A stretch of DNA of 64,000 nucleotides from Eledone cirrhosa (taxonomy: Eukaryota): NCBI GenBank assembly GCA_964016885.1, contig OZ024741.1:123256001-123320000 (forward strand). The letters are read 5' to 3'. Below are positions 9,708-61,019 of this stretch, in pieces. Position numbers and translations under genes: made by a program. The first letter of the stretch is position 1; the number at the start of each line of letters is the position of its first letter. Below the pieces are notes generated by a model. The model was not told the DNA's origin and made no database searches. It saw nothing but the letters and a program-made list of their open reading frames with translations.

Positions 9708-9972
9708 TTTAATATATCAATATAATGATTTCTTTATTAACCACAAGGGTTTACATAAAGTAGACATTAAGGATAGTGAAGGACAATACAGGACGGTACA
9801 AATGGGCATTTCTGCGTGTAAAAAACAAAAACAGATGATGTAACAAAAATAATGAAAAATTCCCCAATAGGGGGGAGACTTCGAAGGGACATTTGTGGAG
9901 AAAGCCCAGTAAAAGGCCACAATGACCCTGACCACCAAGACAAGTGCCCTCTCCCAGATTTCCACCTTTAAT

Positions 9973-12900
9973 TTACAGATATATACTCAGAGTAGGCCCA
10001 TTCACTCGGGCCATTCTTGTTTCTCTCACCCATCTTTCAACATAATGCTGGGAAGAGAGCACTTCCCTCTCTACTCTGATTTTCCTTTTCAAATGAAATT
10101 TGAAAAAGTCAATCAGACCATCACCGAAGAGGTAAGTGCTCGTCTTCAGCCCTTTCAAACGTGTCCACCATACTATCTCTTTCGCCATGGCCACCAGACA
10201 GATAAAAACTTCCTGCCCTTCCCGGCTAAAGGAGGAGGGCGGGGAAATCCTCACGATGGACTCAGATGATAGCCGGATCCGTCCTAAACGTGACAGCAGG
10301 TGTTCGACATAAACCCACAAGTCAGCAATTTTCGGACACTGGACGAGTGCGTGCAGGACGATTTCGTCGCCCTGCGCGCATCTCGGACATGCCGGGCTGA
10401 CGGCACCTCCATGCCTGTAGAGTTTATCCCGAACTGGCAAGGCTCCTCGGTAGCACTGCCAGGCCAGAGATTTCTGGAAGTTGTCCATAGGCCCTGGCCC
10501 GAAAGTTCTTCCGAAGAGATTGGCTAGTTGATTTTCGTCGACGCCTAGAGTTTCCCCAAGTGCGTCGTCGCTCTTCCCCTCCACTAGTCCTCTATAGAAC
10601 GCCGAGGTGGAGATTCCACCGATCACATTGCCCGATTGGTCGAGGGCTGTGAGCGCCTGAAGATATTCCAGTCTTCAGGCGCTCCCTCTCGGTCTTCGCT
10701 TGACCCAGGACTGCAGCTCCGTCAAGGAAACGAGCTGGGGAAAAACGTGTCTAGCAAACGGCGACCACACCTGATCACCGTCGAGGAAGAGGTGGAGATG
10801 TCGTAGCCTGAGCGCGTGCCTGCGCATCATCAGCCACGGCATGCCCAGCCCTCCACATAGCGGGTGTTGCCAACAGATGGACCGCCTGACCATCGGAGCG
10901 CGTCCTTCCACAAAAAGCGAAAAAGCAAACGCTCCAGCGCAGTCAGGCGAGGCTTAGGACAAGGTACGACGGTCAGGCGGTAGCAGATAACAGACGCGAT
11001 GTACGCGTTAGCCACCTCCGCTCGACCTTTCAGGGATAGCTTCCTTTCCATTTGTGGGTGAGAGAAGCCACCCTGGTCGTCACCTCGTCCCAGTTTTTGT
11101 CCGTCTGGAGGTCCGGACCGAACCAGACCCCTAGCAATTTAACCGGTCTGTCCGTCCAGCGTCCGTCGACGCTGTTGGACGGCATGGACCTGCCTCTCCA
11201 GGTGCCGAGCTGCAGGCCCACTGACTTTTCCTGGTCGATCATTGCTCCTGTCACCGCTTCGTATTCTCTTAGTGTAGTACCGATCGCCTCGATGTGTTTG
11301 GCGTTCGACACCACTACGGTCACATCGTCCGCATATGCTGACACGGATCTTTCGCATCCTAGTTCGCGCGGGACGCCCATCAGTAGACGTCCGCCAAGAG
11401 GCCTCCGAACAAGTCTGGCATCTGTACGTAAAGTTCATAGGGCAGACCATCCAAACCAGGCGATTTACCCCTTGTGCAGCCAATCATTGCCTCCCTTACT
11501 TCAGCGGCTGTTATCGGCTTTTCGCAACTCTCCGCCTCAGTGGCCGAGAGCCGCGGCAGTCCGTCGAGGTAGACACTAAATCATCCCTCGACCCGGCCCA
11601 CCGCTGCACCCCAAACAGAGGAGCGAAGTGTCGCTGAAAAGCTTCGCACATTTGCCCGGGATCGAGTAGCATGCGCCCGTCGTGGTTCACCAAAGACCGG
11701 ATCGTGGCTTTGTTGCCACGACGCGCCTCCGCCACTCGGGCCCATTGAACGGCTTTCGTCCCCTCGTGTCTGAGAGTAGGAACCCTAGCTCTGACAACGC
11801 AGCCTTCGTGTTTGCATTGAAGAATTGGTCAAGGGCCAATTTCGCCGCAAGTACGTCGGTCGCAATGCCTTTGCTAAGCGCCTCGTCTAATTTTCTAACT
11901 AGTTCTCCCTCTGCTCCATTTTTTTCTATTGCTAAAGCCTTACTAAACCTAAAGGATTCTTTTCTAATCGCTCTTTTCAGAGCAAACCACCAATTGTTGA
12001 TGACGATGGCCCCCGTCAACGCCCGCTGAACTATTTCGCTAATCTGGTCTCTGTAGGCCTTGTGCGCTGGTAAGGACGCGTTTAGATTCCAGTAGCCGGG
12101 TCCTCGTCTGTGAAGCCTATCTAAGTCAAGCACACAGATCACGAATTTGTGGTCCGTGTAGCTGACTATCTTGAATTGTGGACAGCCTATGCTAGACCTA
12201 TCTATTTCCATACAACATACTCTATCTAGATATGATCTGGATGACCCTATGCGATTTTTCCAAGTCCACATTGGCACATTCGGGAAATCCAATCGGTACC
12301 TGTCAGACAGTTCAAAGCGACTGAGCAGGTTGGTGAGGCTCTTGCACCCTCCACCCCTATCCGCTAATCCCACACAGTCCAAGCGTGCATCTAAGATCCC
12401 GTTCCAGTCGCCCATTAACACTAAAGAGCAGGACGTTCCAAGAAAGGTCTCCAGACGCCGGAAGGGATCAGGCTGCCCTGCTCCTGTCGGGGCATAGACG
12501 GCCACTAGCCTGAAACCTTGCCCGTCTCCGCTGGTCACGTCCAACACCACCAACTTACCCTCTGTGTCCAGGAAGATGGCCCGTATGGCGAGATCCAAAC
12601 CTCTCCGAAAAAGCACAGCAACTCCATCCCCCCGATCCAGGACGGCTGGGAGATGCGTACACATCGTAGCGGCCGAAGATCGGTGCGAAAGCTCGTGCTT
12701 CGGAGATTCTGGTCAAGCACACAGATCACGAATTTGTGGTCCGTGTAGCTGACTATCTTGAATTGTGGACAGCCTATGCTAGAGCAATCTATTTCCCTAC
12801 AAAATACTCTATCTAGATATGATCTGGATGACCCTATGCGATTTGTCCAAGTCCACATTGGTACATTCGGGAAATCCATTCGGTACCTGTCAGACAGTTC

Positions 12901-13416
12901 AAAACGTCTGAGCAGGTTGGTGAGACTCTTGCACCCTCCTTCCCTATCCACTAATCCCACACAATCCCAGCGTGCATCTAAGATCCCGTTCCAGTCGCCC
13001 ACTAACACTAAAGAGCGGGACGTTCCAAGAAAGGTCTCCAGACGCCGGAAGAAATCAGGCCGCCCTGCTCCTGTCGGGGCATAGACGGCCACTAACCTGA
13101 AAGCTTGCCCGTCTCCGCTGGTCACGTCCAGCACCACCAACTTACCTTCTGGGTCCAGGAAGATGGCCCGTATGGCAAGATCCAAACCTCTCCGAAAAAG
13201 CACAGCAACTCCTCCCCCCGATCCCGGACGGCTGGGAGATGCGTACACATCGTAGCCGCCGAAGATCGGTGCGAAAGCCTGTGCTTCGGAGATTCTGGTC
13301 TCGCTGATGGCCACTACATCTATGTTTAGTGACCTGAGGTCGTTGAGCAGGTGGCCCTGCTTCCATGACGACCCCAAGCCACGCGCATTTATGCTGCCTA
13401 TTCTGAGTGAGGTCAT
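9973..13416 (-). pseudogene. Copy A ORF2 (APE-RT-zinc finger), disrupted
   Basis: MTSLRIGSINARGL start, GDWN, YLDR, YTDH, YADD, CPRC..HALVQC; multiple frameshifts. Confidence 0.9.
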
Positions 13417-13450
13417 GTTGAAAAGGAGTGGAAAAGATGGGAAAGACCAC

Positions 13451-15438
13451 TTACCTTACTTCTCGTAGGGGAAGGACGGTTTATCCATCCTTTTCACTGC
13501 TTGTGGCCTCCTCAGGAAGGATGTCCTTATAAATCCTCCTGGAGAGTGCTTGTCGGAATTCTCCGATGTCTTTGGGGAATTTTTGTTTTAGTGTCATGTA
13601 CGTTTTCTGTGTGATGCGAGTGATTTGTATGTGTGGAGGTGGTGTGCATTTTGGGGTTGTTGTGTAGTCTTTTTCTGTGATGCTGGTGTTGTGTTGGATG
13701 TAGTGTAATAATTGCTTGTTGTTCAAATTTAATGCTGTGTAGTGTGTATCGTTTTGGTTGTTTTGTTTTGTTTGCGTTTGTTGTGGGTTTGTTTCTGTTT
13801 CGCATTTTGGTGACTTTTGTGGTGTAGGTGATGGTGGTGTTGGAGTTAATGATGGTGATGGTGTTGGTGTTTTGGTTGATGGGGTTGGTGATGCTGGTGT
13901 GGATGGTGGCATATCTGTCCTAACTTTTTTGTTTCTTAATTTATTTGTTTCCCTCTGTATTTTGTTTTTGGAGGGGGAGGGAAGAGATTTTTTCTTTTTT
14001 GGTTTCTTTTTTTTTTTCGGATATCGTTTCCCACTCCTCGTCGTCACAATCTGTCTCCAGTTGTGATAGGCCGGGGAGTGGAAAATCCTCCACAGGCGTT
14101 AGTTTTGGTTGTGGCGTGGTGGATGGTGTAGGCGCTGGTGCTAGTTCTGAAGCGTTGGATGGTGGTGGTGTTGGTTTTGCTGGTGGTGGTGGTGGTGGTG
14201 GTTTGGCTACTGTTGCTGGGGTTGTTGCCGTTATAGTTGCTTCTGTTGTTGCTGCTACAGTTGTTGCTGCCATCTCTGCTACTGGTGGTGTTGATGGTTG
14301 TGTCACTGGGGTGGGTAGGAGAGGTGGCCTCAACCTTTTAGCCTGAGGGCAGAAAGCCCTTAGGTGGGTTCCTTCACCACAAACGACACACCTAGGTCTT
14401 CTGCCCTCGACAATTACCGTGAGGTGGCTGCCGTCAGTGAGGTCTATTACCTCTGGGATCTCCTCAATGCTTTTTGGGTCCGCTTGGATCAGGAGCTCCA
14501 TCCCAGATCCGGACCAGTTCTCCTGCTTTTCTTTTGCTATTGCTATTATTTTCGTGTTGGCTTCGATGCCGGCGAGGACGGCCGCTATTAGCCCGGGAAT
14601 TTCGATGGCCGGTGGAACGTGGGTCACCCTGATATTTACGAGTCTCTGGCCACAATAGCGACGAGTGTGAAGTCGTCACTTCTTAATGGGGCCATGGAGT
14701 GTTCTCTAGCCTCCTCTGGTGTTTCAAAGAACACGTCCACGGTTCCATACTTCTGCCCACGTCTGATGTGGGTTTTTCTTGCCCACACATGTCCCAAAGC
14801 TTTTTGGATTTGGGACTCGGATGCCCGTTCCACTCGGCGCGATTTTACATTTATCGTTCGATACGACACGGTACATAGGCGCCGATGCTCCATTTTATTA
14901 GGTGGTGGGATGGCTGAGCCTGTACCCATCTTTCTTTACCATTTGTTTGGCATTTTCTAAATCCTCCTGAGTTACCGTAAATGCTTCGAACTGTTTTGCT
15001 ACTATTGCAAAACTGAGGGTCGTTTTTATAATGTCATTGTTGTTGTTGTTGCTATCGTTATTTGTGTTAATATTAATTTTAGTTTCAGTTGTGGTGGTGG
15101 TGACGTCAGTCGTCTTTGGTGGGGAAGAGTCCACTTTGCTTGATTTCATTTCGACATCACGAGTTAATTTATTTTTTTCTTCTTTTGTTTCTGTTGTCGC
15201 GGTGGTGGTGGTGGTGGTGGTTGTCACGGTGGTGGTGGTGGTGGAGGCTTTAACACCTGCAGTCATTGGAAATGGCGGGAAATGAATGTCTGCCTGAGAC
15301 AAATTAAAAATATTGCTACTGCTTATATTTTTTTTTTGTGTTGGGAAACGTAGTAACATTTACAATGGTGGTGTCGGTGTGAGGTGTTATTTTGTGAGGA
15401 AGGCTTTCAGCTGCTTGGTGCAGAGGTGAATTAGCCAT
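13451..15438 (-). pseudogene. Copy A ORF1, type B (gag-like, CCHC zinc knuckle), frameshifted
   Basis: ORF pieces 14898-15359, 14636-14929, 13941-14627 (CVVCGEGTHLRAFC) and 13481-14047 are colinear with the type-A ORF1 of copies C and D. Confidence 0.85.
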
Positions 15439-15645
15439 TTTTCTCAAAGAAATTTTTTGATAATAATAAAGTTTAAATTTTGGGCACAAGGCCCCAATCT
15501 TTTTGGGTGTCCTTTTCGGAAAACAATGTATGTGCGCTTATAAACAGTTAACAATAAAATTTTCCATAAATGACAATTTTTAACAAACGTCAAATAACAA
15601 ACCTTTGCGGAGCTCACGATGATACGATTTACTACGTAGGTCGCC

Positions 15646-15689
<44 letters not shown>

Positions 15690-18276
15690 TAATAATAATA
15701 ATGTTTTCTTTATTAACCACAAGGGTTTACATAAAGTAGACATTAAGGACAGTACAGGACAATACAGGACGGTACAAATGGGCATTTCTGCGTGTAAAAA
15801 CAACGGAGGTTGAAGTAAAATAACAAAGAAAAATTCCCCAATAGGGGGGAGTCTTCCGAGGGACATTTGTGGAGAAAGCCCATTAAAAGACCACAGTGGC
15901 CCTGACCACCAGGGCAAGTGCCCTCTCCCAGTTTTCCACCTTTAATTTACAGACACATACTCAGAGAATGCCCATTCATTCGGGCCATACTTGCTTCTCT
16001 CACCCATCTTTCAACAAAATGCTGGGAAGAGAGCATTTCCCTCTCTACCCTGATTTTCCTTTTCAAATGAAATTTGAAAAAGTTAATCAGGGCATCACCG
16101 AAGAGGTAAGTGCTCGTCTTCAGCCCTTTCAAACGTGTCCACCATACTATCTCTTTCGCCATGGCCACCAGACAGATAAAAACTGCCTGCCCTTCCCGGC
16201 TAAAGGAAGGGGGCGGGGCAATCCTCACGATGGACTCAGCTGATAGCTGGATCCGTCCTACACGTGACAGCAGGTGTTCGATATAAACCCACAAGTCAGC
16301 AATGCTCGGACACTGGACGAGTGCGTGCAGGACGGTTTCGTCGCCCTGCGCGCATCTCGGACATGCCCGGCTGACGGCACCTCCATGCCTGTAGAGTTTA
16401 TCCCGAACTGGCAAAGCTCCTCGGTAGCACTGCCAGGCCAGGGATTTCTGGAAGTTGTCCATAGGCCCCGGCCCGAAAGTCCTTCCGAAGAGATTGGCTA
16501 GTTGATTTTCGTCGACGCCTAGAGTTTCTCCAAGTACGTCGTCGCTCTTCCCCTCCACTAATCCTCTATAGAACGCCGAGGTGGAGTTTCCACCGATCAC
16601 ATTGCCCGATTGGTCGAGGGCTGTGAGCGCCTGAAGACATTCCAGTCTCCAAGCGCTCCCTCTGGTCTTCGCTTGACCCAGGACTGCAGCTACGTCAAGG
16701 AGACGAGCTGGGGAAAAACGTGTCTAGCAAACGGCGACCACACCTGATCACCGTCGAGGAAGAGGTGGAGATGTCGTAGCCTGAGCGCGTGTCTGCGCAT
16801 CATTAGCCACGGCATGCCCAGCCCTCCACGTAGCGGGAGTTGACAGCAGATGGACCGCCTGACCATCGGAGCGCGTCCCTTCCACAAGAAGCGAAAGAGC
16901 AAACGCTCCAGCGCAGTCAGGCGAGGCTTAGGACAAGGTACGACGGTCAGGCGGTAGTAGATGACGGATGCGATGTAAGCATTCGCCACCTCCGCTCGAC
17001 CTTTCAGGGATAGCTTCCCCTCGGCCCATTTCTGGGTGAGAGAAGCCACTCTGCTCGTCACCTCGTCCCAGTTTTTGTCCGTCTGGAGGTCTGGACCGAA
17101 CCAGACCCCTAGCAATTAAACCGGTCCGTCCGTCCAGCGCCCGACGACGCTGTTGGACGGCATGGACCTGCCTCTCCAGGTGCCGAGCTGCAGGCCCACT
17201 GACTTTTCCTGGTCGATCATTGCTCCTGTCACCGCTTCGTATTCTCTTAGTGTAGTGCCGATCGCGTCGATGTGTTTGGCGTTCGACACCACTACGGTGA
17301 CATCGTCGGCATATGCTGACACGGATCTCCCGCATCCTAGTTCGCGCGGGACCCCCCTCAACGTCTCCAGTTTGTGCAGTAATGGCTCGAGAGTCAATAC
17401 GTACATTAGGGACGAGAGGGGACATCCTTGGCGGACCGAGCGCATGATGTTGAACGGTTCCGAAAGGTGACCGTTCACTCTCACCACAGAGCAGATGTCG
17501 CTGTGCATGGCAGCGATCCAGCCTCTGAAGACGGGCCCAAAGCCAGCCGCCCACTTTCTTTACCATTTGTTTGGCATTTTCTAAATCCTCCTGAGTTACC
17601 GTATATGCTTCGAACTGTTTTGCTACTATTGCAAAACTGAGGGGCGTTTTTATAATGTCATTGTTGTTGTTGTTGCTATCGTGCTTTGTGTTAATATTAA
17701 TTTTAGTTTCAGTTGTGGTGGTGTTGACGTCAGTCGTCTTTCGTGGGGAAGAGTCCACTTTGCTTGATTTCATTTCGACATCACGAGTTAATTTATTTTT
17801 TTCTTCTTTTGTTTCTGTTGTCGCGGTGGTGGTGGTGGTGGTGGTGGTGGTTGTCGCGGTGGTGGTGGTGGTGGAGGCTTTAACACCTGCAGTCATTGGT
17901 AATGGCGGGAAATGATTGTCTGCTTGAGACAAATTTAAAATATTGCTAGTGCTTATATTTTTTTTCGTGTTGGCAAACGTAGTAACATTTACAATGGTGG
18001 TGTCGGTGTGAGGTGTTAATTTGTGAGGAAGGCTTTCAGCTGCTTCGTGCAGAGGTGAATTAGCCATTTTTTTTTCAAAGAAATTTTTTGATAATAATAA
18101 AAGTTAAAATTTTGGGCACAAGGCCCCAATCTTTTTGGGTGTCCTTTTCGGAAAACAATGTATGTGTGCTTATAAACAGTTAACAATAAAATTTTCCATA
18201 AATGGCAATTTTTAACAAACGGAAATAACAAACCTTTGCGGAGCTCACGATGATACGATTTACTACGTAGGTCGAC
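15646..18276 (-). mobile_element. Tx1 copy B (type-B 5' module) with a large internal deletion
   Basis: The 5'UTR and ORF1 N-terminus (18067 to ~17553) join directly to mid-RT at ~17552; the ORF2 3' part spans 15947-17552; (AAT)n tail at 15646-15702. Confidence 0.9.
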
Positions 18277-18325
<49 letters not shown>

Positions 18326-18600
18326 TTAATAATAATACTGATTTCTTTATTAACCACAACGGTTTACATAAAGTAGACATTAAGGACAGTGCAGGACAAT
18401 GCAGGATGGTACAAATGGGCATTTCTGCGTGTAAAAAACAAGAACAGAGGATGTAACAAAAATAACAATGAAAATAACAATGAAAAATTCCCCAATAGGA
18501 GGGAGACTTCGGAGGGACATTTGTGGAGAAAGCCCAGTAAAAAGCCACAATGACCCTGACCACCAAGGCAAGTGCCCTCCCCCAGTTTTTCACCTTTAAT

Positions 18601-21600
18601 TTACAGATATATACTCAGAGTAGGCCCATTCACTCGGGCCATTCTTGCTTCTCTCACCAATCTTTCAACAAAATGCTGGGAAGAGAGCACTTCCCTCTCT
18701 ACTCTGATTTTCCTTTTCAAATGAAATTTGAAAAAGTCAATCAGAGCATCACCGAAGAGGTAAGTGCTCGTCTTCAGCCCTTTCAGACGTGTCCACCATA
18801 CTATCTCTTTCGCCATGGCCACCAGACAGATAAAAACTGCCTGCCCTTCCCGGCTAAAGGAGGAGGGCGGGGAAATCCTCATGATGGACTCAGATGATAG
18901 CCGGATCCGTCCTAAACGCGACATAAACCCACAAGTCAGCAATTTTCGGACACTGGACGAGTGCGTGCAGGACGGTTTCGTCGCCCTGTGCGCATCTCGG
19001 ACATGCCCGGCTGACGGCACCTCCATGCCTGTAGAGTTTATCCCGAACTGGCAAGGCTCCTCGGTAGCACTGCCAGGCCAGAGATTTCTGGAAGTTGTCC
19101 ATAGGCCCCGTCCCGAAAGTTCTTCCGAAGAGATTGGCTAGTTGATTATCGTCGACGCCTAGAGTTTCCCCAAGTACGTCGTCGCTCTTCCCCTCCACTA
19201 ATCCTCTATAGAACGCCGAGGTGGAGTTTCCACCGATCACATTGCCCGATTGGTCGAGGGCTGTGAGCGCCTGAAGACATTCCAGTCTCCAGGCGCTCCC
19301 TCTCGGTCTTCGCTTGACCCAGGACTGCAGCTCCGTCAAGGAAACGAGCTGGGGAAATACGCGCCTAGCAAACGGCGACCACACCTGATCACCGTCGAGG
19401 AAGAGGTGGAGATGTCGTAGCCTGAGCGCGTGCCTGCGCATCATCAGCCACGGCATGCCCAGCCCTCCACATAGCGGGTGTTGACAACAGATGGACCGCC
19501 TGACCATCGGAGCACGTCCCTTCAACAAAAAGCGAAAGAGCAAACGCTCCAGCGCAGTCAGGCGAGGCTTAGGACAAGGTACGACGGTCAGGCGGTAGCA
19601 GATGACAGACGTGATGTACGCGTTAGCCACCTCCGCTCGACCTTTCAGGGATAGCTTCCTCTCCGCCCATTTCTGGGTGAGAGAAGCCACTCTGCTCGTC
19701 ACCTCGTCCCAGTTTTTTGTCCGTCTGGAGGTCCGGACCGAACCAGACCCCTAGCAATTTAACCGGTCCGTCCGTCCAGCATCCGACGACGCTGTTGGAC
19801 GGCATGGACCTGCCTCTCCAGGTGCCGAGCTGCAGGCCCACTGACTTTTCCTGGTTGATCATTGCTCCTGTCACCGCTTCGTATTCTCTTAGTGTAGTGC
19901 CGATCGCCTCGATGTGTTTGGCGTTCGACACCACTACGGTGGCATCGTCCGCATATGCTGACACGGATCTTTCGCATCCTAGTTCGCGCGGGACTCCCCT
20001 CAACGTCTCCAGTTTGTGCACTAATGGCTCGAGAGTCAATACGTACAAGAGGGACGAGAGGGGACATCCTTGGCGGACCGAGCGCATGATGTTGAACGGT
20101 TCCGACAGGTGACCGTTCACTCTCACCACAGAGCAGATGTCGCTGTGCATGGCAGCGATCCAGCCTCTGAAGACGGGCCCAAAGCCAGCCGCCCTCAGGA
20201 CTGCCGCTAGGTAACGATGGTCGACCCTATTGAAAGCTTTCGACTGATCTAAATTGATCAAGGACCCACCCGTGCCAGGTTCCTTAGCTACCCTCTCTAT
20301 GATGTATCGCATGAGGTGGAGGTTGTCGTGGATGGATCTGTCGGGAATGGCGCATGTCTGCGCCTCTCCCACCAGACCACCAACGACAAGCGCCAACCTC
20401 TTTGCTAGCACCTGACCAAAATCTTGAACTCTGTGTTTAGCAGAGTTATGGGCCGGAAATTATCTATGTTATCCCCCTTGTTCGGATCCTTTCTCAGCAG
20501 TGCCACCGCTCCACGGCTCAGAGAACTGGGAATTCTCCCGTTCTGTTGCCAGTTGCAGTAGACGTCCGCCAAAAGGCCTCCGAACAAGTCTGGCATCTGT
20601 ACGTAAAGTTCATAGGGCAGACCATCCAAACCAGGCGATTTACCCCTTGTACAGCCAGTCATTGCCTCCCTTACTTCAGCGGCTGTTATCGGCTTTTCCA
20701 ACACTTCGCCTCAGTGGCCGAGAGCCGCGGCAGTCCGTCGAGGTAGACACTAAAGTCCATCCCTCTACCCGGCCCACCGCTGCCCCCGAACAGCTGAGCG
20801 AAGTGTCGCTGAAAAGCTTCACACATTTGCCCGGGATCGAGTAGCATGCGCCCGTCGTGGTCCACCAAAGACCGGATCTTGGCTTTGTTGCCACGACGCG
20901 CCTCCGCCACTCAGGCCCATTGAACGGCTTTCGTCCCCTCGTGTCTGAGAGCACGCACCCTTGCTCTGACAACGCAGCCTTCGTGCTTTGCATTGAAGAA
21001 TTGGTCAAGGGCCAATTTCGCCGCAAGCACGTCGGTCGCAATGCCTTTGCTAAGCGCCTCGTCTAATTGTCTAACTAGTTCTTCCTCTGCTCTACTTTTC
21101 TCTATTGCTAAAGCCTTACTAAACCTCATGGATTCTATTCTAATCGTTCTTTTCAGAGCAAACCACCACTTGTTGTTGACGATGGCCCCCGTCAACGCCC
21201 GCTGAACTAGTTCGCTAATCCGGTCTCTGTAGGCCTTGCGCGCTGGTAAGGACGCGTTTAGCTTTCAGTAGCCGGGTCTTCGTCTATGAAGCCTATCTAA
21301 GTCAAGCACACAGATCACGAATTTGTGGTCCGTGTAGCTGACTATCTTGAATTGTGGACAGCCTATGCTAGACCTATCTATTTCCCTACAAAATACTCTA
21401 TCTAGATATGATCTGGATGACCATATGCGGTTTGTCCAAGTCCACATTGGCACATTCGGGAAATCCAATCGGTACCTGTCAGACAGTTCAAAGCGCCTGA
21501 TCAGGTTGGTGAGGCTCTTGCACCCTCCACCCCTATCCGCTAATCCCACACAGTCCCATCGTGCATCTAAGATCCCGTTCCAGTCGCCCACTAACACTAA

Positions 21601-22006
21601 AGAGCGGGACGTTCCAAGAAAGGTCTCCAGACGCCGGAAGAAATCAGGCCGCCCTGCTCCTGTCGGGGCATAGACGGCCACTAGCCTGAAAGCTTGCCCG
21701 TCACCGCTGGTCACGTCCAGCACCACCAGCTTACCCTCTGGGTCCAGGAAGATGGCCCGTATGGCGAGATCCAAACCTCTCCGAAAAAGCACAGCAACTC
21801 CATCCACCCGATCCCGGACGGCTGTGAGATGCGTACACAACGTAGCCCCCGAAGATCGGTGCGAAGGCCCGTGCTTCGGAGATTCTGGTCTCGCTAATGG
21901 CCACTACATCTATGTTTAGTGACCTCAGGTCGTTGAGCAGGTGACCCTGCTTCCATGACGACCCCAAGCCACGCGCATTTATGCTGCCTATTCTGAGTGA
22001 GGTCAT
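18601..22006 (-). pseudogene. Copy C ORF2 (APE-RT), disrupted
   Basis: Colinear with copy D ORF2; stops and frameshifts split it into ORFs 21731-22006, 21265-21840, 20911-21195, 20405-20704, 19623-20411, 18890-19702 and others. Confidence 0.9.
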
Positions 22007-22041
22007 GTTTAAAATAGAGTGGAAAAGATGGGAAAGACCAC

Positions 22042-23995
22042 TTACCGTACTTTTGGTAGAAGAGGGATGGTTTTTACATCCCTTTTCACTTGATCGTCTG
22101 GTGAAGGGACCGTTGAATCGTCCCTTCGGCTGGTCGTCGGCTCTTCTAAGAGAATGTCTGAATATACTCTTCGATTGATGGTTCCTCCTAGGTCCCTGAA
22201 ATCACCAACAGCGTTGGGGAATTTCGTTTTAATGTTTGTGTATTGTTTCTGTGCTATTTTTAGCAGTCTTATGTTAGTTGGCGTTTTGATTGGTGCTGGT
22301 ATTATGTAGTCCTGTTGTGAAATGTCTGTGTGTTCAATTATGTAAGTCATTAGTTCCTTGTTGTGTGTATTTATTGCCGTGCATTTGTTTTTCTGGGGGT
22401 GGGGTGTGGTTTTGCTATTTTCTTGTCGTTGTTGCTGGGTGTGTGTGTTTTGTTGTTGTGTTTGCGATGTTGGTGCTTGTGGTGGTGGTGTTGAAGGTGT
22501 TGTTGGCGGTGGGGTTGTCGCCGGTGGTGATGGTGGTGCTAGTGTGGGTGGTGATGGTGTTGGTGGTGTTGCTGCTGTGGGTCTCTTTGCAGTAGACTTT
22601 ACCCTTTTCTCATTTCTTTCCTCCCTTTTCAAAGGCGACGATGCGCTGCTTCTGCGTTTGTGCCTTCTTACGACCTTTTGCCATCCCTCTCCCACCTCAC
22701 ACTCCATGTCTGATTCTGTGAGGTCGGGGAGGGGTACCAGCTCCACTCTTTCACTTGTTGTTGTTGGTGATGTTTGCACTGGAGTCTCTGTTGCAGCTGC
22801 ATTTGGTATTGCTGTTGTTGTTGTTAATATTTCCACTGCTGCTGATGTTTTTGATTTCCGTGGAGTGGGTATGGGTGCCACGGACCTATCGTTCCTGGTT
22901 ACCGCTTGACCTGTTGCTGGTAGCCGTGGAGCCGGATTCGGAAGGAGGGGGGTTTTCTCCTTTCTCAGGGTCTTCTCGTTGCAGAAGGCCCTGAGGTGAG
23001 TCTTCGATCCACAGCGAAAGCATTTCGGGCGTTTGCCCTCAACACTTATGGGCAGTTGAGTGCCGTTATCGAAGTCTATCACATCCGGGATAGCTTCGAT
23101 GCACTCCTGGTTGGTTTGGATTAGCATCTCAATGGAGGAGCCGACCCAATCTTCTCTTACTTTTTTCTGTACTTGCAGTACAGTTGTTTTGTCCTCGATT
23201 CCGACGAGGACAGACGTAGCCAGCCAAGAAGGGGTCATTCCGGGGGGGACGTGGGTCAGTTTGACCCTCACAATTTTTTGCCCGCAGTAGGAGGGCACCA
23301 ACACCATTTCCTCGCTCCTTAGGGTCACTACGGGATTTTGTACTTACTGTACGGTACGTGACCGTACAGTGCTCTTGGGTTTCGAAAAATTTTTCCGCTG
23401 CCTTGCAGATTGCTCGGTGTCCATTCTTTGTCACCATCTTCTTCGCTTCCTCTAATTCCTCATTTGTTATGAGGATTGTTTCCAAGTTTTTCGCAATACC
23501 TGCAAATGAGATTGGTTTTTCTCTGCTGCTGCTGTTGTTGTTGTCGTCAGAGCTGCTGGAACTTTTGTTGTTGCTGCAGGTACTACGACTACTGCCTCCG
23601 CCGCTGTTGCTGTGGTTGTTGTTGCTGCTGCTAATGCTGTTGTTGTTTATGCTGCTGGTGATGCTGTTGCGGCGGCTTCTGTTGTTTTCATTGTCACTGT
23701 TGCTGTTGTTGTTACGGCTGCTACTGCTATTATTCCTGACGTCAGACGAATGAACTGGGTTTTCGTATTTCCCGCACACCTGTTTCGTCGCTGTCGTCGT
23801 CGTCGTGGAGAAACCTTGCACGCTTTGCACGAGACTTTTCTTTTCTTTCGTCACTTGCGAAAGAGAAGGGAGGGAGAGAGACACATTTAAAGAAGGGAGG
23901 GAGAGAGACAATCTTCTCTCTGCTGTAGTGATGATTGAGGAAGAAGAAGACGGAATGAGTGGGAGTGACGTATGAAATTTCTTTTTCGTAGCCAT
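22042..23995 (-). pseudogene. Copy C ORF1, type A (CCHC knuckle)
   Basis: MATKKKF start, CFRCGSKTHLRAFC, Pro/Thr-rich linker, ends LLPKVR*; frameshift caused by a deletion at ~23330. Confidence 0.85.
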
Positions 23996-24507
23996 TTTGT
24001 TTTTTGTTTAAAATGAATATTGGGTACAAAACCCCAATAACTGGTTATTTAACCCCGAAGGGCCAAATAACGGACAGAAAGACCTCACTCACGAGGAGGA
24101 GGGTGTCTTTATCAACAATTTGGTTCAAGTTTTAAACAATTTACAATTGTTTTAACGGTTAAAAATTACTATACCTTACAGAGCCGAGCCTCCGTCAACC
24201 ATGGCATTCAATAATAATAATAATAATAATAATAATATTAATAATGATTTCTTTATTAACCACAAGGGTTTACATAAAGTAGACATTAAGGACAGTGCAG
24301 GACAATGCAGGACGGTACAAATGGGCATTTCTGCGTGTAAAAAAACAAAAACAGAGGATGTAACAAAAATAACAATGAAAATAACAATGAAAAATTCCCC
24401 AATAGGGGGGAGACTTCGGAGGGACATTTGTGGAGAAAGCCCAGTAAAAAGCCACAATGACCCTGACCACCAAGGCAAGTGCCCTCTCCCAGTTTTCCAC
24501 CTTTAGT

Positions 24508-27500
24508 TTACAGATATATACTCAGAGTCGGCCCATTCACTCGGGCCATTCTTGCTTCTCTCACCCATCTTTCAACAAAATGCTGGGAAGAGAGCACTTC
24601 CCTCTCTACTCTGATTTTCCTTTTCAAATGAAATTTGAAAAAGTCAATCAGAGCATCACCGAAGAGGTAAGTGCTCGTCTTCAGCCCTTTCAAACGTGTC
24701 CACCATACTATCTCTTTCGCCATGGCCACCAGACAGATAAAAACTGCCTGCCCTTCCCGGCTAAAGGAGAAGGGCGGGGCAATCCTCACGATGGACTCAG
24801 ATGATAGCTGGATCCGTCCTAAACGCGACAGCAGGTGTTCGACATAAACCCACAAGTCAGCAATTTTCGGACACTGGACGAGTGCGTGCAGGACGGTTTC
24901 GTCGCCCTGCGCGCATCTCGGACATGCCCGGCTGACGGCACCTCCATGCCTGTAGAGTTTATCCCGAACTGGCAAGGCTCCTCGGTAGCACTGCCAGGCC
25001 AGAGATTTCTGGAAGTTGTCCATAGGCCCTGGCCCGAAAGTTCTTCCGAAGAGATTGGCTAGTTGATTTTCGTCGACGCCTAGAGTTTCCCCAAGTACGT
25101 CGTCGCTCTTCCCCTCCACTAATCCTCTATAGAACGCCGAGGTGGAGTTTCCACCGATCACATTGCCCGATTGGTCGAGGGCTGTGAGCGCCTGAAGACA
25201 TTCCAGTCTCCAGGCGCTCCCTCTCGGTCTTCGCTTGACCCAGGACTGCAGCTCCGTCAAGGAAACGAGCTGGGGAAAAACGCGTCTAGCAAACGGCGAC
25301 CACACCTGATCACCGTCGAGGAAGAGGTGGAGATGTCGTAGCCTGAGCGCGTGCCTGCGCATCATCAGCCACGGCATGCCCAGCCCTCCACGTAGCGGGT
25401 GTTGACAACAGATGGACCGCCTGACCATCGGAGCACGTCCCTTCCACAAAAAGCGAAAGAGCAAACGCTCCAGCGCAGTCAGGCGAGGCTTAGGACAAGG
25501 TACGACGGTTAGGCGGTAGCAGATGACAGACGCGATGTACGCGTTAGCCACCTCCGCTCGACCTTTCAGGGATAGCTTCCTCTCCGCCCATTTCTGGGTG
25601 AGAGAAGCCACCCTGCTCGTCACCTTGTCCCAGTTTTTGTCCGTCTGGAGGTCCGGACCGAACCAGACCCCTAGCAATTTAACCGGTCCGTCCGTCCAGC
25701 GCCCGACGACGCTGTTGGACGGCATGGACCTGCCTCTCCAGGTGCCGAGCTGCAGGCCCACTGACTTTTCCTGGTTGATCATTGCTCCTGTCACCGCTTC
25801 GTATTCTCTTAGTGTAGTGCCGATCGCCTCGATGTGTTTGGCGTTCGACACCACTACGGTGACATCGTCCGCATATGCTGACACGGATCTTCCGCATCCT
25901 AGTTCGCGCGGGACCCCCCTCAACGTCTCCAGTTTGTGCAGTAATGGCTCGAGAGTCAATACGTACAAGAGGGACGAGAGGGGACATCCTTGGCGGACCG
26001 AGCGCATGATGTTGAACGGTTCCGACAGGTGACCGTTCACTCTCACCACAGAGCAGATGTCGCTGTGCATGGCAGCGATCCAGCCTCTGAAGACGGGCCC
26101 AAAGCCAGCCGCCCTCAGGACTGCCGCTAGGTAACGATGGTCGACCCTATCGAAAGCTTTCGACTGATCTAAATTGATCAAGGACCCACCCGTGCCAGGT
26201 TCCCTAGCTACCCTCTCTACGATGTATCGCATGAGGTGGAGGTTGTCGTGGATGGATCTGTCGGGAATGGCGCATGTCTGCGCCTCTCCCACCAGACCAC
26301 CAACGACAAGCGCCAACCTCTTTGCTAGCACCTTGGCCAAAATCTTAAACTCTGTGTTTAGCAGAGTTATGGGCCGGAAATTGTCTATGTTATCCCCCTT
26401 GTTCGGATCCTTTCTCAGCAGTGCCACCGCTCCTCGGCTCACAGAACTGGGAATTCTCCCGTTCTGTTGCCAGTTGCAGTAGACGTCCGCCAAGAGGCCT
26501 CCGAACAAGTCTGGCATCTGTACGTAAAGTTCATAGGGCAGACCATCCAAACCAGGCGATTTACCCCTTGTGCAGCCAGTCATTGCCTCCCGTACTTCAG
26601 CGGCTGTTATCGGCTTTTCGCAACACTTCGCCTCAGTGGCCGAGAGCCGCGGCAGTCCGTCGAGGTAGACACTAAAGTCCATCCCTCTACCCGGCCCCCC
26701 GCTGCCCCGGAACAGCTGAGCGAAGTGTCGCTGAAAAGCTTCACACATTTGCCCGGGATCGAGTAGCATGCGCCCGTCGTGGTCCACCAAAGACCGGATC
26801 GTGGCTTTGTTGCCACGACGCGCCTCCGCCACTCGGGCCCATTGAACGGCTTTCGTCCCCTCGTGTCTGAGAGCACGCACCCTAGCTCTGACAACGCAGC
26901 CTTCGTGCTTTGCATTGAAGAATTGGTCAAGGGCCAATTTCGCCGCAAGCACGTCGGTCGCAATGCCTTTGCTTAGCGCCTCGTCTAATTTTCTAACTAG
27001 TTCTCCCTCTGCTCTATTTTTCTCTATTGCTAAAGCCTTACTAAACCTAATCGATTCTATTCTAATCGCTCTTTTCAGAGCAAACCACCACTTGTTGTTG
27101 ACGATGGCCCCCGTCAACGCCCGCTTAACTAGTTCGCTAATCCGGTCTCTGTAGGCCTTGCGCGCTGGTAAGGACGCGTTTAGCTTCCAGTAGCCGGGTC
27201 CTCGTCTATGAAGCCTATCTAAGTCAAGCACACAGGTCACGAATTTGTGGTCCGTGTAGCTGACTATCTTGAATTGTGGACAGCCTATGCTAGACTTATC
27301 TATTTCCCTACAAAATACTCTATCTAGATATGATCTGGATGACCCTATGCGGTTTGTCCAAGTCCACATTGGCACATTCGGGAAATCCAATCGGTACCTG
27401 TCAGACAGTTCAAAACGCCTGAGCAGGTTGGTGAGGCCCTTGCACCCTCCACCCCTATCCGCTAAACCCACACAGTCCCATCGTGCATCTAAGATCCCGT

Positions 27501-27927
27501 TCCAGTCGCCCACTAACACTAAAGAGCGGGACGTTCCAAGAAAGGTCTCCAGACGCCGGAAGAAATCAGGCCGCCCTGCTCCTGTCGGGGCATAGACGGC
27601 CACTAGCCTGAAAGCTTGCCCGTCTCCGCTGGTCACGTCCAGCACCACCAGCTTACCCTCTGGGTCCAGGAAGATGGCCCGTATGGCGAGATCCAAACCT
27701 CTCCGAAAAAGCACAGCAACTCCTCCACCCGATCCAGGACGGCTGGGAGATGCGTACACATCGTAGCCGCCGAAGATCGGTGCGAAGGCCCGTGCTTCGG
27801 AGATTCTGATCTCGCTGATGGCCACTACATCTATGTTTAGTGACCTGAGGTCGTTGAGCAGGTGACCCTGCTTCCATGACGACCCCAAGCCACGCGCATT
27901 TATGCTGCCTATTCTGAGTGAGGTCAT
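24508..27927 (-). CDS. Intact Tx1-clade ORF2: APE endonuclease + reverse transcriptase + C-terminal zinc finger (1139 aa)
   Basis: The ATG at 27927 (MTSLRIGSINARGL) matches the ORF2 starts of copies A and C. Motifs ISE, VYAP, GDWN, YLDR, YTDH, WKLNASL, KSPGLDG, FRPITLLN, DQSKAFDRV, RQGCPLS, YADD and CPRC..H..VQC are present with no internal stop. Confidence 0.92.
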   Translation of the reverse strand: MTSLRIGSINARGLGSSWKQGHLLNDLRSLNIDVVAISEIRISEARAFAPIFGGYDVYASPSRPGSGGGVAVLFRRGLDLAIRAIFLDPEGKLVVLDVTSGDGQAFRLVAVYAPTGAGRPDFFRRLETFLGTSRSLVLVGDWNGILDARWDCVGLADRGGGCKGLTNLLRRFELSDRYRLDFPNVPMWTWTNRIGSSRSYLDRVFCREIDKSSIGCPQFKIVSYTDHKFVTCVLDLDRLHRRGPGYWKLNASLPARKAYRDRISELVKRALTGAIVNNKWWFALKRAIRIESIRFSKALAIEKNRAEGELVRKLDEALSKGIATDVLAAKLALDQFFNAKHEGCVVRARVRALRHEGTKAVQWARVAEARRGNKATIRSLVDHDGRMLLDPGQMCEAFQRHFAQLFRGSGGPGRGMDFSVYLDGLPRLSATEAKCCEKPITAAEVREAMTGCTRGKSPGLDGLPYELYVQMPDLFGGLLADVYCNWQQNGRIPSSVSRGAVALLRKDPNKGDNIDNFRPITLLNTEFKILAKVLAKRLALVVGGLVGEAQTCAIPDRSIHDNLHLMRYIVERVAREPGTGGSLINLDQSKAFDRVDHRYLAAVLRAAGFGPVFRGWIAAMHSDICSVVRVNGHLSEPFNIMRSVRQGCPLSSLLYVLTLEPLLHKLETLRGVPRELGCGRSVSAYADDVTVVVSNAKHIEAIGTTLREYEAVTGAMINQEKSVGLQLGTWRGRSMPSNSVVGRWTDGPVKLLGVWFGPDLQTDKNWDKVTSRVASLTQKWAERKLSLKGRAEVANAYIASVICYRLTVVPCPKPRLTALERLLFRFLWKGRAPMVRRSICCQHPLRGGLGMPWLMMRRHALRLRHLHLFLDGDQVWSPFARRVFPQLVSLTELQSWVKRRPRGSAWRLECLQALTALDQSGNVIGGNSTSAFYRGLVEGKSDDVLGETLGVDENQLANLFGRTFGPGPMDNFQKSLAWQCYRGALPVRDKLYRHGGAVSRACPRCAQGDETVLHALVQCPKIADLWVYVEHLLSRLGRIQLSSESIVRIAPPFSFSREGQAVFICLVAMAKEIVWWTRLKGLKTSTYLFGDALIDFFKFHLKRKIRVEREVLSSQHFVERWVREARMARVNGPTLSIYL

Positions 27928-27962
27928 GTTTAAAATAGAGTGGAAAAGATGGAAAAGACCAC

Positions 27963-29917
27963 TTACCGTACTTTTGGTAGAGGAGGGATGGTTTTTACAT
28001 CCCTTTTCACTTGATCGTCTGGTGAAGGGACCGTTTTTTAGCAGTCTTATGTTAGTTGGCGTTTTGATTGGTGCTGGTATTATGTAGTCCTGTTGTGAAA
28101 TGTCTGTGTGTTCAATTATGTAAGTCATTAGTTTCTTGTTGTGTGTGTTTATTGCCGTGCATTTGTTTTTCTGGGGGTGGGGTGTGTTTCTGCTATTTTC
28201 TTGTCGTTGTTGCTGGGTGTGTGTGTTTTGTTGTTGTGTTTGCGATGTTGGTGCTTGTGGTGGTGGTGTTGAAGGTGTTGTTGGCGGTGGGGTTGTCGCC
28301 GGTGGTGATGGTGGTGCTGGTGTGGGTGGTGATGGTGTTGGTGGTGTTGCTGCTGTGGGTCTCTTTGCAGTAGACTTTACCCTTTTCTCATTTCTTTCCT
28401 CCCTTTTCAAAGGCGACGATGCGCTGCTTCTGCGTTTGTGCCTTCTTGCGACCTTTTGCCATCCCTCTCCCACCTCACACTCCATGTCTGATTCTGTAAG
28501 GTCGGGGAGGGGTACCAGCTCCACTCTTTCACTTGTTGTTGTTGGTGATGTTTGCACTGGAGTCTCTGTTGCAGCTGCATTTGGTATTGCTGTTGTTGTT
28601 GTTAATATTTCCACTGCTGCTGCTGTCTTTGATTTCCGTGGAGTGGGTATGGGTGCCACGGACCTATCGTTCCTGGTTGCCGCTTGTCCTGTTGCTGGTA
28701 GCCGTGGAGCCGGATTCGGAAGGAGGGGGGTTTTCTCCTTTCTCAGGGTCTTCTCGTTGCAGAAGGCCCTGAGGTGAGTCTTCGATCCACAGCGAAAGCA
28801 TTTCGGGCGTTTGCCCTCAACACTTTATGGGCAGTTGAGTGCCGTTATCGAAGTCTATCACATCCGGGATAGCTTCGATGCACTCCTGGTTGGTTTGGAT
28901 TAGCATCTCAATGGAGGAGCCGACCCAATCTTCTCTTACTTTTTTCTGTACTTGCAGTACAGTTGTTTTGTCCTCGATTCCGACGAGGACAGACGCAGCC
29001 AGCCAAGAAGGGGTCATTCCGGGGGGGACGTGGGTCAGTTTGACCCTCACAATTTTTTTCCCGCAGTAGGAGGGCACCAACACCATTTCCTCGCTCCTTA
29101 GGGTCACTACTGATTGGGCCTTTGCCTCCTGGGGTGTGGCAAAAAGTACGTCTACGGTGGCGTATTTTTTGCCTCGGGTGATGTGCGTTTTCCTCTGCCA
29201 CACAGACCCCAAGGCTTTTTGTATTTGGGCCTCTGTGGCTCTTTCCACCCTACGGGATTTTGTACTTACTGTACGGTACGTGACCGTACAGTGCTCTTGG
29301 GTTTCGAAAAAATTTTTCGCTGCCTTGCAGATTGCTCGGTGTCCGTTCTTTGTCACCATCTTCTTCGCTTCCTCTAATTCCTCATTTGTTATGAGGATTG
29401 TTTCCAAGTTTTTCGCAATACCTGCAAATGAGATTGGTTTTTCTCTGCTGTTGTTGTTGTCGTCAGAGCTGCTGGTACTTTTGTTGTTGCTGCAGGTACT
29501 ACGACTACTGCCTCCGCCGCTGTTGCTGTGGTTGTTGTTGGTGTTGCTGCTGCTAATGCTGTTGTTGTTTATGCTGCTGGTGATGCTGTTGCGGCTGCTA
29601 CTGTTGTTTTCATTGTCACTGTTGCTGTTGTTATTACGGCTGCTACTGCTATTATTCCTGACGTCAGACGAATGAACTGGGTTTTCGTATTTCCCGCACA
29701 CCTGTTTCGTCGCTGTCGTCGTCGTCGTGGAGAAACCTTGCACGCTTTGCACGAGATTTTTCTTTTCTTTCGTCGCTTGCGAAAGAGAAGGGAGGGAGAG
29801 AGACACATTTAAAGAAGGGAGGGAGAGAGACAATCTTCTCTCTGCTGTAGTGATGATTGAGGAAGAAGAAGACGGAATGAGTGGGAGTGACGTATGAAAT
29901 TTCTTTTTCGTAGCCAT
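27963..29917 (-). pseudogene. Copy D ORF1, type A; 1-bp insertion near 28824 and 143-bp deletion near 28035
   Basis: Direct comparison with copy C (cactttatgg vs cacttatgg; ccgtttttta junction). Confidence 0.85.
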
Positions 29918-30150
29918 GTTTTTTTGTTTAAAATGAAATTTTGGGTACAAAACCCCAATAACTGGTTATTTAACCCCGAAGGGCCAAATAACGGACAGAA
30001 AGACCCCTCTCACGAGGAGGAGGGTGTCTTTATCAACAATTTGGTTCAAGTTTTAAACAATTTACAATTGTTTTAACGGTTAAAAATTACTATACCTTAC
30101 AGAGCCGAGCCTCCGTCAACCATGGCATTCAATAATAATAATAATAATAA

Positions 30151-43116: not shown

Positions 43117-43190
<74 letters not shown>

Positions 43191-43234
43191 AAGTTAAATA
43201 AAAGTCAAATGATTAAAATTTAGCTTCGTTTATT

Positions 43235-43289
43235 ACTGCTATATATATTTCAGTGACAGCCATCTTTGGCTGTGACCTCTTCAGGCAGT
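43235..43289 (-). ncRNA. Minimal type I hammerhead ribozyme (sense to the Naiad ORF)
   Basis: Reverse complement of 46701-46755. Confidence 0.8.
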
Positions 43290-44478
43290 TTGAATTAGTA
43301 TGGTATAGACAAGTACATATGTTGTTTAGGTGTATGATATTGTCAATACTCTGATATGCCCAGTTCCTTGCTGGGTTGTTAATTCACTGGGGAACTGGAG
43401 TCATATGAATTCAAACAAACGAATTTTCGTGTCACAGGTCCCCTTCTCCTCTCATTGGTCAGCTATTAGTGTTGTCATTGTTGGAGTTAGCTTAAAAATT
43501 GATAAAATGGTAGAAGGGACAAGGTGTTGAAGGAACAAAATATCAAAAAATGTGTCAAACTTCCCATTGTTCAGTTCTGAGAGCATTCCTCAGTCAGAAG
43601 TCTATAGAATTCTTTCTGGGGTGAGGCTCCCTGTAGTGTTTATGCCTGCTATTGTTCAGTACATTTGACCTCCACCATTATTTTGGTACTGTTGTTGTTG
43701 TAGTGGTCAGCTTATATCTTGCTGCTGCTAACAATTTAGAAGTATTCAGTTTGTGTTTTCTCTTCATCCCACCCGCCACCATCGTAGTGGTGGTGGCGGA
43801 GGGGGGGGGGGGTTATTTCATGTATATGAAGAAATATAAGGCAATAAATGAAGAAAACAGAAGATAAATAAATAATATAATAAAATAAAATAATTAATAT
43901 AATTTGTGTAATTTGAAAATAAATAAATAAATAGAGAATAAAGAATAAAGAGTAAATGAGAGATTGGTGAAAAAGTAATGATAATGTATATGGAGAAGTG
44001 AGAAATAATGTAGGATAAAGTGTGTGTGTGTGTGTGCTATAACCAATCTCAAGGTCAGAATATGTTGGATAGATTGGTATGATACAAGATGTTAAGATGA
44101 GATATTCAATGTGTTTGTGTTATAATCTATCTCAACTTAAAATAAATATAAGGTTATACAGTGAAGAGGGCAGAAAACTAATAACAAATTAATAAAGAGA
44201 AATCAAGATTTAAGATTGGAACTTTAAAGTCAGAAATCTGGTAAATTAAAAGTGTTTGTGTTATAGATGTTGGCCAGATTATTATGGCTGTGTCCGATTC
44301 TATCTCTAGGCTATCATGGTGTCTGCTCCGCCTGGGTTGTTCCCTATGGCTTGAGGGGAGTTCACAACCTAGGGTGTTGTAATTGTCCATATAGCTTGAG
44401 GGAGGTCTGGCCGAGAGGTGTTTTCATGTTCTGTAGAAGTCCCTATAGCTTGAGGGGAGTTCACATCTTCTTGTGTTG

Positions 44479-46700: not shown

Positions 46701-46755
46701 ACTGCCTGAAGAGGTCACAGCCAAAGATGGCTGTCACTGAAATATATATAGCAGT
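46701..46755 (+). ncRNA. Minimal type I hammerhead ribozyme in the inverted pLTR
   Basis: actgc-CTGAAGA-g-gtcacagcc-aaagat-ggctgtcac-t-GAAA-tatata-TA-gcagt. Confidence 0.8.
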
Positions 46756-46901
46756 AATAAACGAAGCTAAATTTTAATCATTTGACTTTTATTTACCTTT
46801 ATTTTACACTACTCCGGAGTAACCAAACCAACCTGCGCACTTCGTCGAGTGCTCCAGCCTGCTTACTGAGGTGTTGGTATACAACCAACATAAACTCAAA
46901 A

Positions 46902-57983: not shown

Positions 57984-58059
<76 letters not shown>

Positions 58060-58061
<2 letters not shown>

Positions 58062-60984: not shown

Positions 60985-61019
<35 letters not shown>

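Follow-up and report, generated by a model that had tools for sequence, protein, structure and literature searches.

The 64,000-nt stretch of the Eledone cirrhosa genome considered here (assembly GCA_964016885.1, contig OZ024741.1, positions 123,256,001 to 123,320,000 of the forward strand), which we call the window and in whose coordinates all positions are given, holds four head-to-tail copies of a long interspersed nuclear element (LINE) with two open reading frames (ORFs). The copies, labelled A, B, C and D, run from 30130 to 9727, all on the minus strand, with (ATT)n between neighbours. Two very different front modules, each consisting of a 5′ untranslated region (UTR) and ORF1, stand here before closely similar ORF2s, and the family to which copies C and D belong (family D) is almost certainly a hybrid, in which the 5′UTR and ORF1 of an older donor family are joined to the ORF1 tail, ORF2 and 3′UTR of the A family. 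The features of the array, in the direction of transcription, are as follows.

24246..30130, minus: copy D, hybrid family; donor-type 5′UTR and ORF1 on an A-lineage ORF2 and 3′UTR
27963..29917, minus: ORF1 of type D (MATKKKF...PKVR stop), 698 aa in intact copies
28009..28013, minus: hybrid junction in copy D; donor-derived CAAG ends at 28010 and A-derived TGAAAAGG begins at 28009, where the donor family has CAAG then GTAAGT
24508..27927, minus: ORF2 of copy D, intact, 1139 aa; apurinic/apyrimidinic (AP) endonuclease, reverse transcriptase (RT) and zf-RVT
24210..24245, minus: (ATT)n, tail of D and insertion site between D and C
18340..24209, minus: copy C, hybrid family; ORF1 ATG at 23995, ORF1 stop at 22044-22042, ORF2 ATG at 22006
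22089/22088, minus: hybrid junction in copy C
18277..18339, minus: (ATT)n between C and B
15703..18276, minus: copy B, A family; internal deletion of ~3.3 kb, A-family 3′ end
15646..15702, minus: (ATT)n between B and A
9727..15645, minus: copy A, an A-type 5′ module on a D-family ORF2 and 3′UTR (back-recombinant)
13451..15438, minus: ORF1 of type A (MANSPLH...REVR stop), 664 aa in an intact copy, frameshifted in the window
13496..13499, minus: CAG/T in the A module, the start point of the A-derived part of hybrid D; acceptor-like, weak
13449..13457, minus: AAG/GTAAGT splice-donor consensus, overlapping the ORF1 stop

All four copies bear deletions or duplications. ORF1 of copy D is broken by a frameshift near 28820 and a deletion near 28035, while copy C lacks ~140 nt of ORF1 near 23330 and has a frameshifted ORF2. 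The deletion in copy B has removed the 3′ two thirds of ORF1 and the 5′ half of ORF2, so that the ORF1 N-terminus meets the middle of the RT near 17553 and the A-type junction is seen within the window only in copy A. Copy A carries an internal duplication of ~590 nt (12125-13300) and a deletion of ~560 nt at 11381, and its ORF2 differs by 1.8-3.6% from the nearest D copies versus 3.5-5.9% from a young A copy. We rejected the idea that copy B is a simple tandem duplication of the 3′ half of C, since the 3′ half of B belongs to the A family and that of C to the D family.

By their domains, ORF1 type and target, these elements are (ATT)n-targeting LINEs of the L1/Tx1 type. ORF2 contains the Pfam domains Exo_endo_phos (22-211), RVT_1 (511-754) and zf-RVT (974-1026), and against the PDB it matches human L1 ORF2p at E=2e-51 and R2 proteins at 1e-21 or weaker, with other AP-endonuclease clades absent among the matches. 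The marks of the L1 group are all present, namely an N-terminal AP endonuclease, an RT and a C-terminal zinc-binding motif, and the protein is nearer to L1 than to R2-type RTs. ORF1 of type D runs from a low-complexity N-terminus through two predicted RNA recognition motifs (RRMs), one CCHC knuckle (CX2CX4HX4C in the alignment) and a Pro/Thr linker to a C-terminal domain. Pfam does not recognise this protein (no relevant match; one sub-threshold MBD match was disregarded), and a structure model of its core (predicted local distance difference score, pLDDT, 79) matches the tandem-RRM proteins Sxl, HuR and HuD at E about 5e-4 to 1e-3. Type I ORF1s are defined by an RRM plus a CCHC knuckle, as opposed to Transposase_22 (PMC5203782); ORF1 as modelled fits this type, which is a trait of the Tx1 clade. 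Names attached to ten clusters of homologues that we looked up were uninformative.

All 19 D heads examined and 14 of the 16 A heads have (ATT)3 immediately 5′ of the element, a Tx1-like target preference, and all families terminate in AATAAA...(ATT)n. Every insertion thus ends in a new target for the next one, which would build head-to-tail arrays. The same downstream sequences also recur behind the ATT tails, for example an end resembling CTTGAATCTCAGTCATTGATG, which follows a number of copies of the A, D and donor families, and these recurring 3′ flanks suggest that other ATT-ended repeats are habitually targeted. Microsatellite LINEs of the Tx1 clade are known from Kibi at (TC)n, Koshi at (TTC)n and crocodilian families at (TTCC)n/(TTTC)n (PMC4494074). 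The present elements resemble them in having an L1-group ORF2 with AP endonuclease, an ORF1 with RRM and CCHC, and insertion into microsatellites, and differ from them in that both target and tail are (ATT)n, giving self-stacking arrays (PMC4494074). For Octopus vulgaris, recently active L1-Tx1 families have been counted, in an account without ORF1 analysis as far as the part available to us goes (PMC13282606).

Family D and its two parents

A sequence-only reading of the window had noticed one ORF2 behind two front modules, and most of what it described was seen again. Copies A and B start with G(G/T)CGACCTACG and encode MANSPLH, and copies C and D start with GAATGCCATGG and encode MATKKKF. 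The near-identity of ORF2 and 3′UTR that had been claimed for all four copies holds for A against D (95-96%), but 81 diagnostic ORF2 sites separate family A from family D, and B is internally deleted. The N-termini, which had not aligned by eye, give no useful alignment by computation either, and the diverged homology of ORF1 amounts to 54% identity in the core and 44% in the C-terminal domain. Over the front 2.1 kb, A and D share three short patches of 67-72%, and from about 13500 to the 3′ end they are 95-96% identical; this onset falls ~45 nt before the ORF1 stop and not at the stop.

The proposed comparison of synonymous divergence (dS), made between intact genomic copies of A and D, bears this out. 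In the ORF1 core dS is saturated (proportion of differing synonymous sites, pS, 0.77; 45 of 56 four-fold sites differ) with a nonsynonymous divergence (dN) of 0.36. ORF2 dS is 0.084-0.093 and dN 0.016 at 96-97% amino-acid identity, and the divergence is even along its length. The ORF1 core is under purifying selection, dN being well below dS.

Both modules belong to large families. The first 31 nt of ORF2 occur in 4,493 exact copies in the 3.0 Gb genome, and the first 30 of these loci by position comprise 19 of type A and 11 of type D; each 5′ module is therefore a genome-wide family and not the product of a local assembly chimera. The A-type junction was found at all 40 scored places, on five contigs and at 99-100%, which disposes of the idea that such a join exists only at this locus. 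Among contigs from runs X1, X4, X5 and X6, only one, of 1,412 nt and from another sample of the same study (X5), spans the hybrid junction, with 10 differences. Roughly half of the words sampled from the A junction region are also present in two other organisms (runs X4 and X6), pointing to relatives of these families in other species.

A divergent ORF2 natively linked to one of the modules, which the earlier reading had suggested looking for, does exist, and the module is that of C and D. When the divergent ORF2 start that stands beside one copy was used as a query, 30 loci were retrieved: 28 with a D-type ORF1 end, one with another ORF1, and the truncated query itself. Among the 19 oriented full loci of this donor family, from which L189, not oriented, was left out, 14 align from the first bases of the D module; their ORF2 is 80-85% identical to those of both A and D, and they have their own 3′UTR. 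Between D and 16 donor copies, ORF1 is 92% identical in amino acids with a dS of 0.14, and ORF2 is 86% identical with a dS of 0.46 (L182, L190 and L198, truncated or mosaic, were left out). ORF2 dS is 0.44 for A against the donor, 0.08 for D against A, and 0.02 for D against older A copies. The 5′ and 3′ parts of D thus have different closest parents, the donor for ORF1 and A for ORF2, which makes D a hybrid of both.

Separate trees for ORF1 and ORF2, in which we included four further ORF1 types, E to H, agree with this. The ORF1 tree, from which one F copy (F_L242) was dropped, has the form G,(A,F,((E,H),(donor,D))) with a Shimodaira-Hasegawa-like approximate likelihood ratio test (SH-aLRT) value of 100 for the pairing of D and donor, while the ORF2 tree has the form G,((H,(E,donor)),(F,A including D)) and places D inside the older A copies with a support of 97. 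The position of D is the one topological conflict between the two. A module swap had been among the explanations first offered, and it was the correct one, with the hybrid being D and not A. An ORF2 tree built from 50 copies places 19 of its 20 D copies in a single group that lies within the older A copies. The remaining D copy, L109, is a local mosaic: its neighbour L108 has a different front, yet the two ORF2s start almost identically, as local conversion or duplication would produce. Older hybrids hold intermediate ORF1 states, and the late donor copies L187 and L188 share about one fifth of the D states.

A junction pattern covering the hybrid and donor forms gave 2,444 matches, and the first 100 listed were 99 hybrids and one donor, a share that is affected by older donor copies matching exact patterns less often. 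The junction is common to all sampled hybrids, so one event founded about 2,400 copies, and the hybrid appears to have outgrown its donor afterwards. The samples of A, D, E, F and donor are best-scoring matches, which biases the family ages young. With that bias, 15 of the 20 D copies retrieved have an intact ORF2, as do 3 of the 20 A copies, and the median divergence from the family majority is 0.14% for D, 0.69% for A, 1.55% for E, 2.87% for older A, 3.18% for the donor and 4.50% for F. The mosaics L087 and L094 were dropped from the A majorities, except in one case in which L087 and L089 were the two dropped.

The junction and how it may have formed

With a slash marking the break, the donor reads ...GACGATCAAG/GTAAGTGA at the join, the hybrid ...GACGATCAAG/TGAAAAGGGATG, and A ...CACAAGCAG/TGAAAAGGATG. 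The parents overlap there by 2 nt, AG. The A-derived part starts after CAG, 43 nt before the ORF1 stop of A, so that, measured from the position that corresponds by homology to the break in the donor, the A side breaks ~45 nt further upstream and the hybrid ORF1 is ~15 residues longer than that of the donor. With such an offset the D join is not a homologous crossover; it also lies upstream of ORF2 and not at a homologous position within it. Identity to the donor stops exactly at CAAG/GTAAGT, which in one donor copy of 6,018 nt is the sole 9/9 match to the splice-donor consensus among 342 GT sites, none of the others reaching 8/9. The parents therefore present a GT donor (CAAG/GTAAGT) and an AG acceptor (CAG/TG, weak) on the two sides of the join, and none of 28 other internal junctions, 11 of which resolved cleanly, fits GT..AG.

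The donor motif is not peculiar to this family. The types A, E, F, G and H and the donor all carry AG/GTAA at the end of ORF1, with two different reading frames among them, and D has CG/GTAA. Its retention across ORF1 types only 35-67% alike, six of them and in two frames, suggests that it is probably constrained as RNA. The splice-donor consensus at the ORF1 end, seen in every ORF1 type (13449-13457 and 27961-27969, minus strand; also L131, L132, L134 and L136), is followed by a pyrimidine-rich spacer of 35-55 nt. In F, G and H the ORF2 ATG has an AG before it, which is lacking in A, D, E and the donor. In the 3′UTR (about 24330-24410, minus strand) a long T-rich tract ends in an acceptor-like CACGCAG, and a search for ORF1-only genomic copies joined to this site gave 0 matches.

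These observations are consistent with a join made by splicing of an RNA that read through from a donor element into an A element, and we consider this route about evenly poised between right and wrong. Since the families end in and insert into (ATT)n, they stack, and a donor copy could have come to lie directly ahead of an A copy; a transcript from the donor promoter would then have read through the donor tail into the A copy. The donor site at the end of the donor ORF1 would have been spliced to the cryptic CAG 43 nt before the ORF1 stop of A, with an intron of ~5.9 kb, and a later insertion of 1 nt would have brought the ORF1 tail into the frame of A. The A-type ORF2 protein would have copied the spliced RNA. 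A donor followed directly by an A element is found at 2 of 20 donor loci examined (L149/L269 and L191/L268), which illustrate the arrangement and need not include the source locus; the A element at L269 is a full-length copy of the older A type. More broadly, and tentatively, an autonomous LINE family of thousands of copies may have been born by the spliceosomal joining of two LINEs within an array of their own making, the donor site at the ORF1 end turning 5′UTR and ORF1 into a portable exon, and ancient fronts may be kept like balanced alleles while ORF2 sweeps; as a complete scenario, this falls slightly short of being probable.

Several points weigh against splicing. There is one junction only, and its acceptor is weak, with 17 purine-rich nucleotides before CAG. 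Nearly all hybrids have an extra G after the junction, which splicing would not produce; a single copy of the 100 listed, L271, is without it and looks like a secondary loss. Other copies joined at ORF1-end donor sites were sought with patterns that cover part of the possible continuations and gave 0/2, 0/5, 0 matches and 0/18, the 2, 5 and 18 matches proving to be small indels, one inversion and unrelated chance matches. Joins with an overlap of 0-4 nt are common among the 11 of 28 junctions that resolved cleanly; the other 17 were recorded as insertions, in part probably because of mismatches close to the break, and the GT-AG control therefore depends chiefly on the 11. The RNA must also have passed AATAAA and the better-looking acceptor in the 3′UTR, and our estimate that chance would give such a join, with about 3 suitable placements among 100 or more usable positions (p near 0.03), was made post hoc.

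Joins with short overlaps being common in these elements, the hybrid might instead have been made at reverse transcription, either by a switch of the RT from A RNA to donor RNA or by attachment of a 5′-truncated A copy to a genomic donor, at a 2-nt AG microhomology that happens to coincide with the splice site. Single mosaic copies are frequent (L087, L065, L133, L146, L190 and window copy A), families E and F appear to have been made by crossovers unrelated to splice sites, a slip during the switch could add the extra G, and both routes have been put forward to account for the mosaic L1s of mouse (PMC3600994) and the shuffling of ORF1 (PMC4120745). A template switch predicts neither the exact match to the sole perfect donor site nor the CAG opposite it, however, and with ORF2s 82% identical nearby one would expect it to exploit homology, as in E and F. 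We regard this origin as unlikely, though a serious competitor to splicing.

Distinctly less likely is a DNA deletion of ~5.9 kb in a donor-A tandem array that left a transposition-competent element. Tandem arrays are common, donor-A tandems exist and the damage to every window copy shows such rearrangements at hand; yet the same coincidence with a splice site goes unexplained, and a chance DNA event must strike two intact copies, an argument made in PMC3600994.

That there was no swap, and that A and D split recently with ORF1 evolving very fast under host conflict, is very improbable and is refuted by the existence of the donor family. The part of this claim that survives is the rate itself. 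At four-fold sites the D lineage has 16 changes in 136 for ORF1 versus 12 in 517 for ORF2, 5.1 times faster (p=2e-5), and the A lineage 7 in 107 versus 14 in 512, 2.4 times faster (p=0.07, not significant). No rate can put D beside the donor in the ORF1 tree and beside A in the ORF2 tree, and five times 0.09 is far below saturation, with the dN of the ORF1 core well below its dS. Exchange of ORF2 between families could shrink the apparent ORF2 divergence; the alternative is selection at the nucleotide level. An overlapping antisense gene slowing the silent sites of ORF2 was unsupported (longest antisense frame 170 aa, 28-50 stops per frame), and a bias of A-to-G editing behind the fast change in ORF1 was not seen (7 A>G of 55).

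An assembly chimera at the window locus, conceivable given the difficulty of assembling near-identical tandem repeats and the mosaic state of window copy A, has a negligible chance of being the explanation, and for the families it is refuted by the occurrence of both junctions genome-wide and by the contig from another sample.

Repeated front exchange and related systems

Family D is not the only case. Family E (40 of 40 scored matches at 97-100%) has an ORF1 dS of 1.34 against the donor and an ORF2 dS of 0.04-0.12, the value beyond codon 100 being 0.04, and family F (40 matches at 89-100%) has an ORF1 dS of 2.2 and an ORF2 dS of 0.05-0.08 against A. The ORF2s of E and the donor differ by 11-18% over the first 300 nt and by 0-5% thereafter, and those of F and D by 10% in the first 100 nt and then by 0-3%, placing homologous crossovers inside ORF2 about 250-350 nt in for E and about 90-200 nt in for F. 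From these alignments the two swaps look like ordinary crossovers in early ORF2, which may have run in either direction. The faster silent rate of ORF1 weakens the case for a swap between E and the donor, but the step change inside ORF2 marks a crossover. In all, the fronts A, D and F stand on one ORF2 backbone and those of the donor and E on another, five fronts on two backbones, a picture that suits the ORF2 sweep across old lineages which had been one of the first suggestions and in which ancient modules of 5′UTR and ORF1 would persist through exchanges of ORF2. Types G and H are represented by one copy each. Further ORF1 types occur in the same ATT arrays at L131 (type H), L134 (type G) and L167/L190 (E-like front), 35-64% identical to the D core. 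Copies that switch family in mid-ORF2 include L087, L065, L094, L133, L146, L190 and window copy A.

A front swap is in itself a known kind of event. In mouse, the recombinant active families L1Md Tf and Gf have ORF1 and the 5′ part of ORF2 from one family and the rest from another (PMC3600994). E and F resemble them in having breakpoints near the 5′ end of ORF2, and mouse elements also recruit 5′UTR and coiled-coil (PMC3600994). The mouse parents are close relatives and the breakpoints lie within ORF2 (PMC3600994). Here the ORF1 cores share 53-70% identity and their dS ranges from 1.2 to saturation, five different fronts are found on two ORF2s, and the D break is a non-homologous one that falls on a splice donor. 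In CR1/L2 elements, ORF1 history is reticulate and ORF2 history tree-like, and hybrids with ORF1 and ORF2 from different elements have been proposed (PMC4120745); that transfer was drawn from deep phylogeny with truncated insertion as the suggested route, in contrast to the two parents, intermediates and base-level junction preserved in one genome here (PMC4120745). The closest parallel to splicing is found in mRNA/L1 chimeras such as RAP1GDS1-L1PA2, of spliced source, in which the splice donor of an exon was joined to a cryptic acceptor in the LINE and the product retrotransposed (bioRxiv 10.1101/2025.02.02.635956). There host exons give the promoter, in one or two copies; here the "exon" would be the 5′UTR and ORF1 of another LINE, and the family has ~2,400 copies (bioRxiv 10.1101/2025.02.02.635956). 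In the literature searched by title and start of abstract, with most subscription journals and Repbase Reports outside its coverage, no paper described a LINE family that arose through splicing from one LINE to another, nor this A/D pair of families. What is new is the depth of the ORF1 divergence, the repetition of swaps with their parents preserved, and the possible origin by splicing.

Three models compete for exchanges of the front half of a LINE, namely DNA recombination, an RNA/DNA heteroduplex and RT template switching (PMC3600994). The preservation of both parents, dated intermediates and a base-exact junction adds a fourth candidate, splicing of a tandem read-through RNA. ORF2 evidently works with ORF1 proteins only 53-70% alike, and classification by RT merges biologically distinct families. 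The system also allows one to ask why old modules of 5′UTR and ORF1 persist, with different promoters or escape from host silencing as candidate reasons.

Elsewhere in the window, an inverted repeat of 1,025 bp, 99.2% identical, occupies 43184-44208 and 45784-46806, and its arms enclose ~1.6 kb with open frames that have no Pfam match. The region 58000-61000 is GC-rich and strongly G-skewed (GC skew up to 0.75) and adjoins a decayed RT fragment at 59852-60727; another RT fragment lies at 54551-55423.

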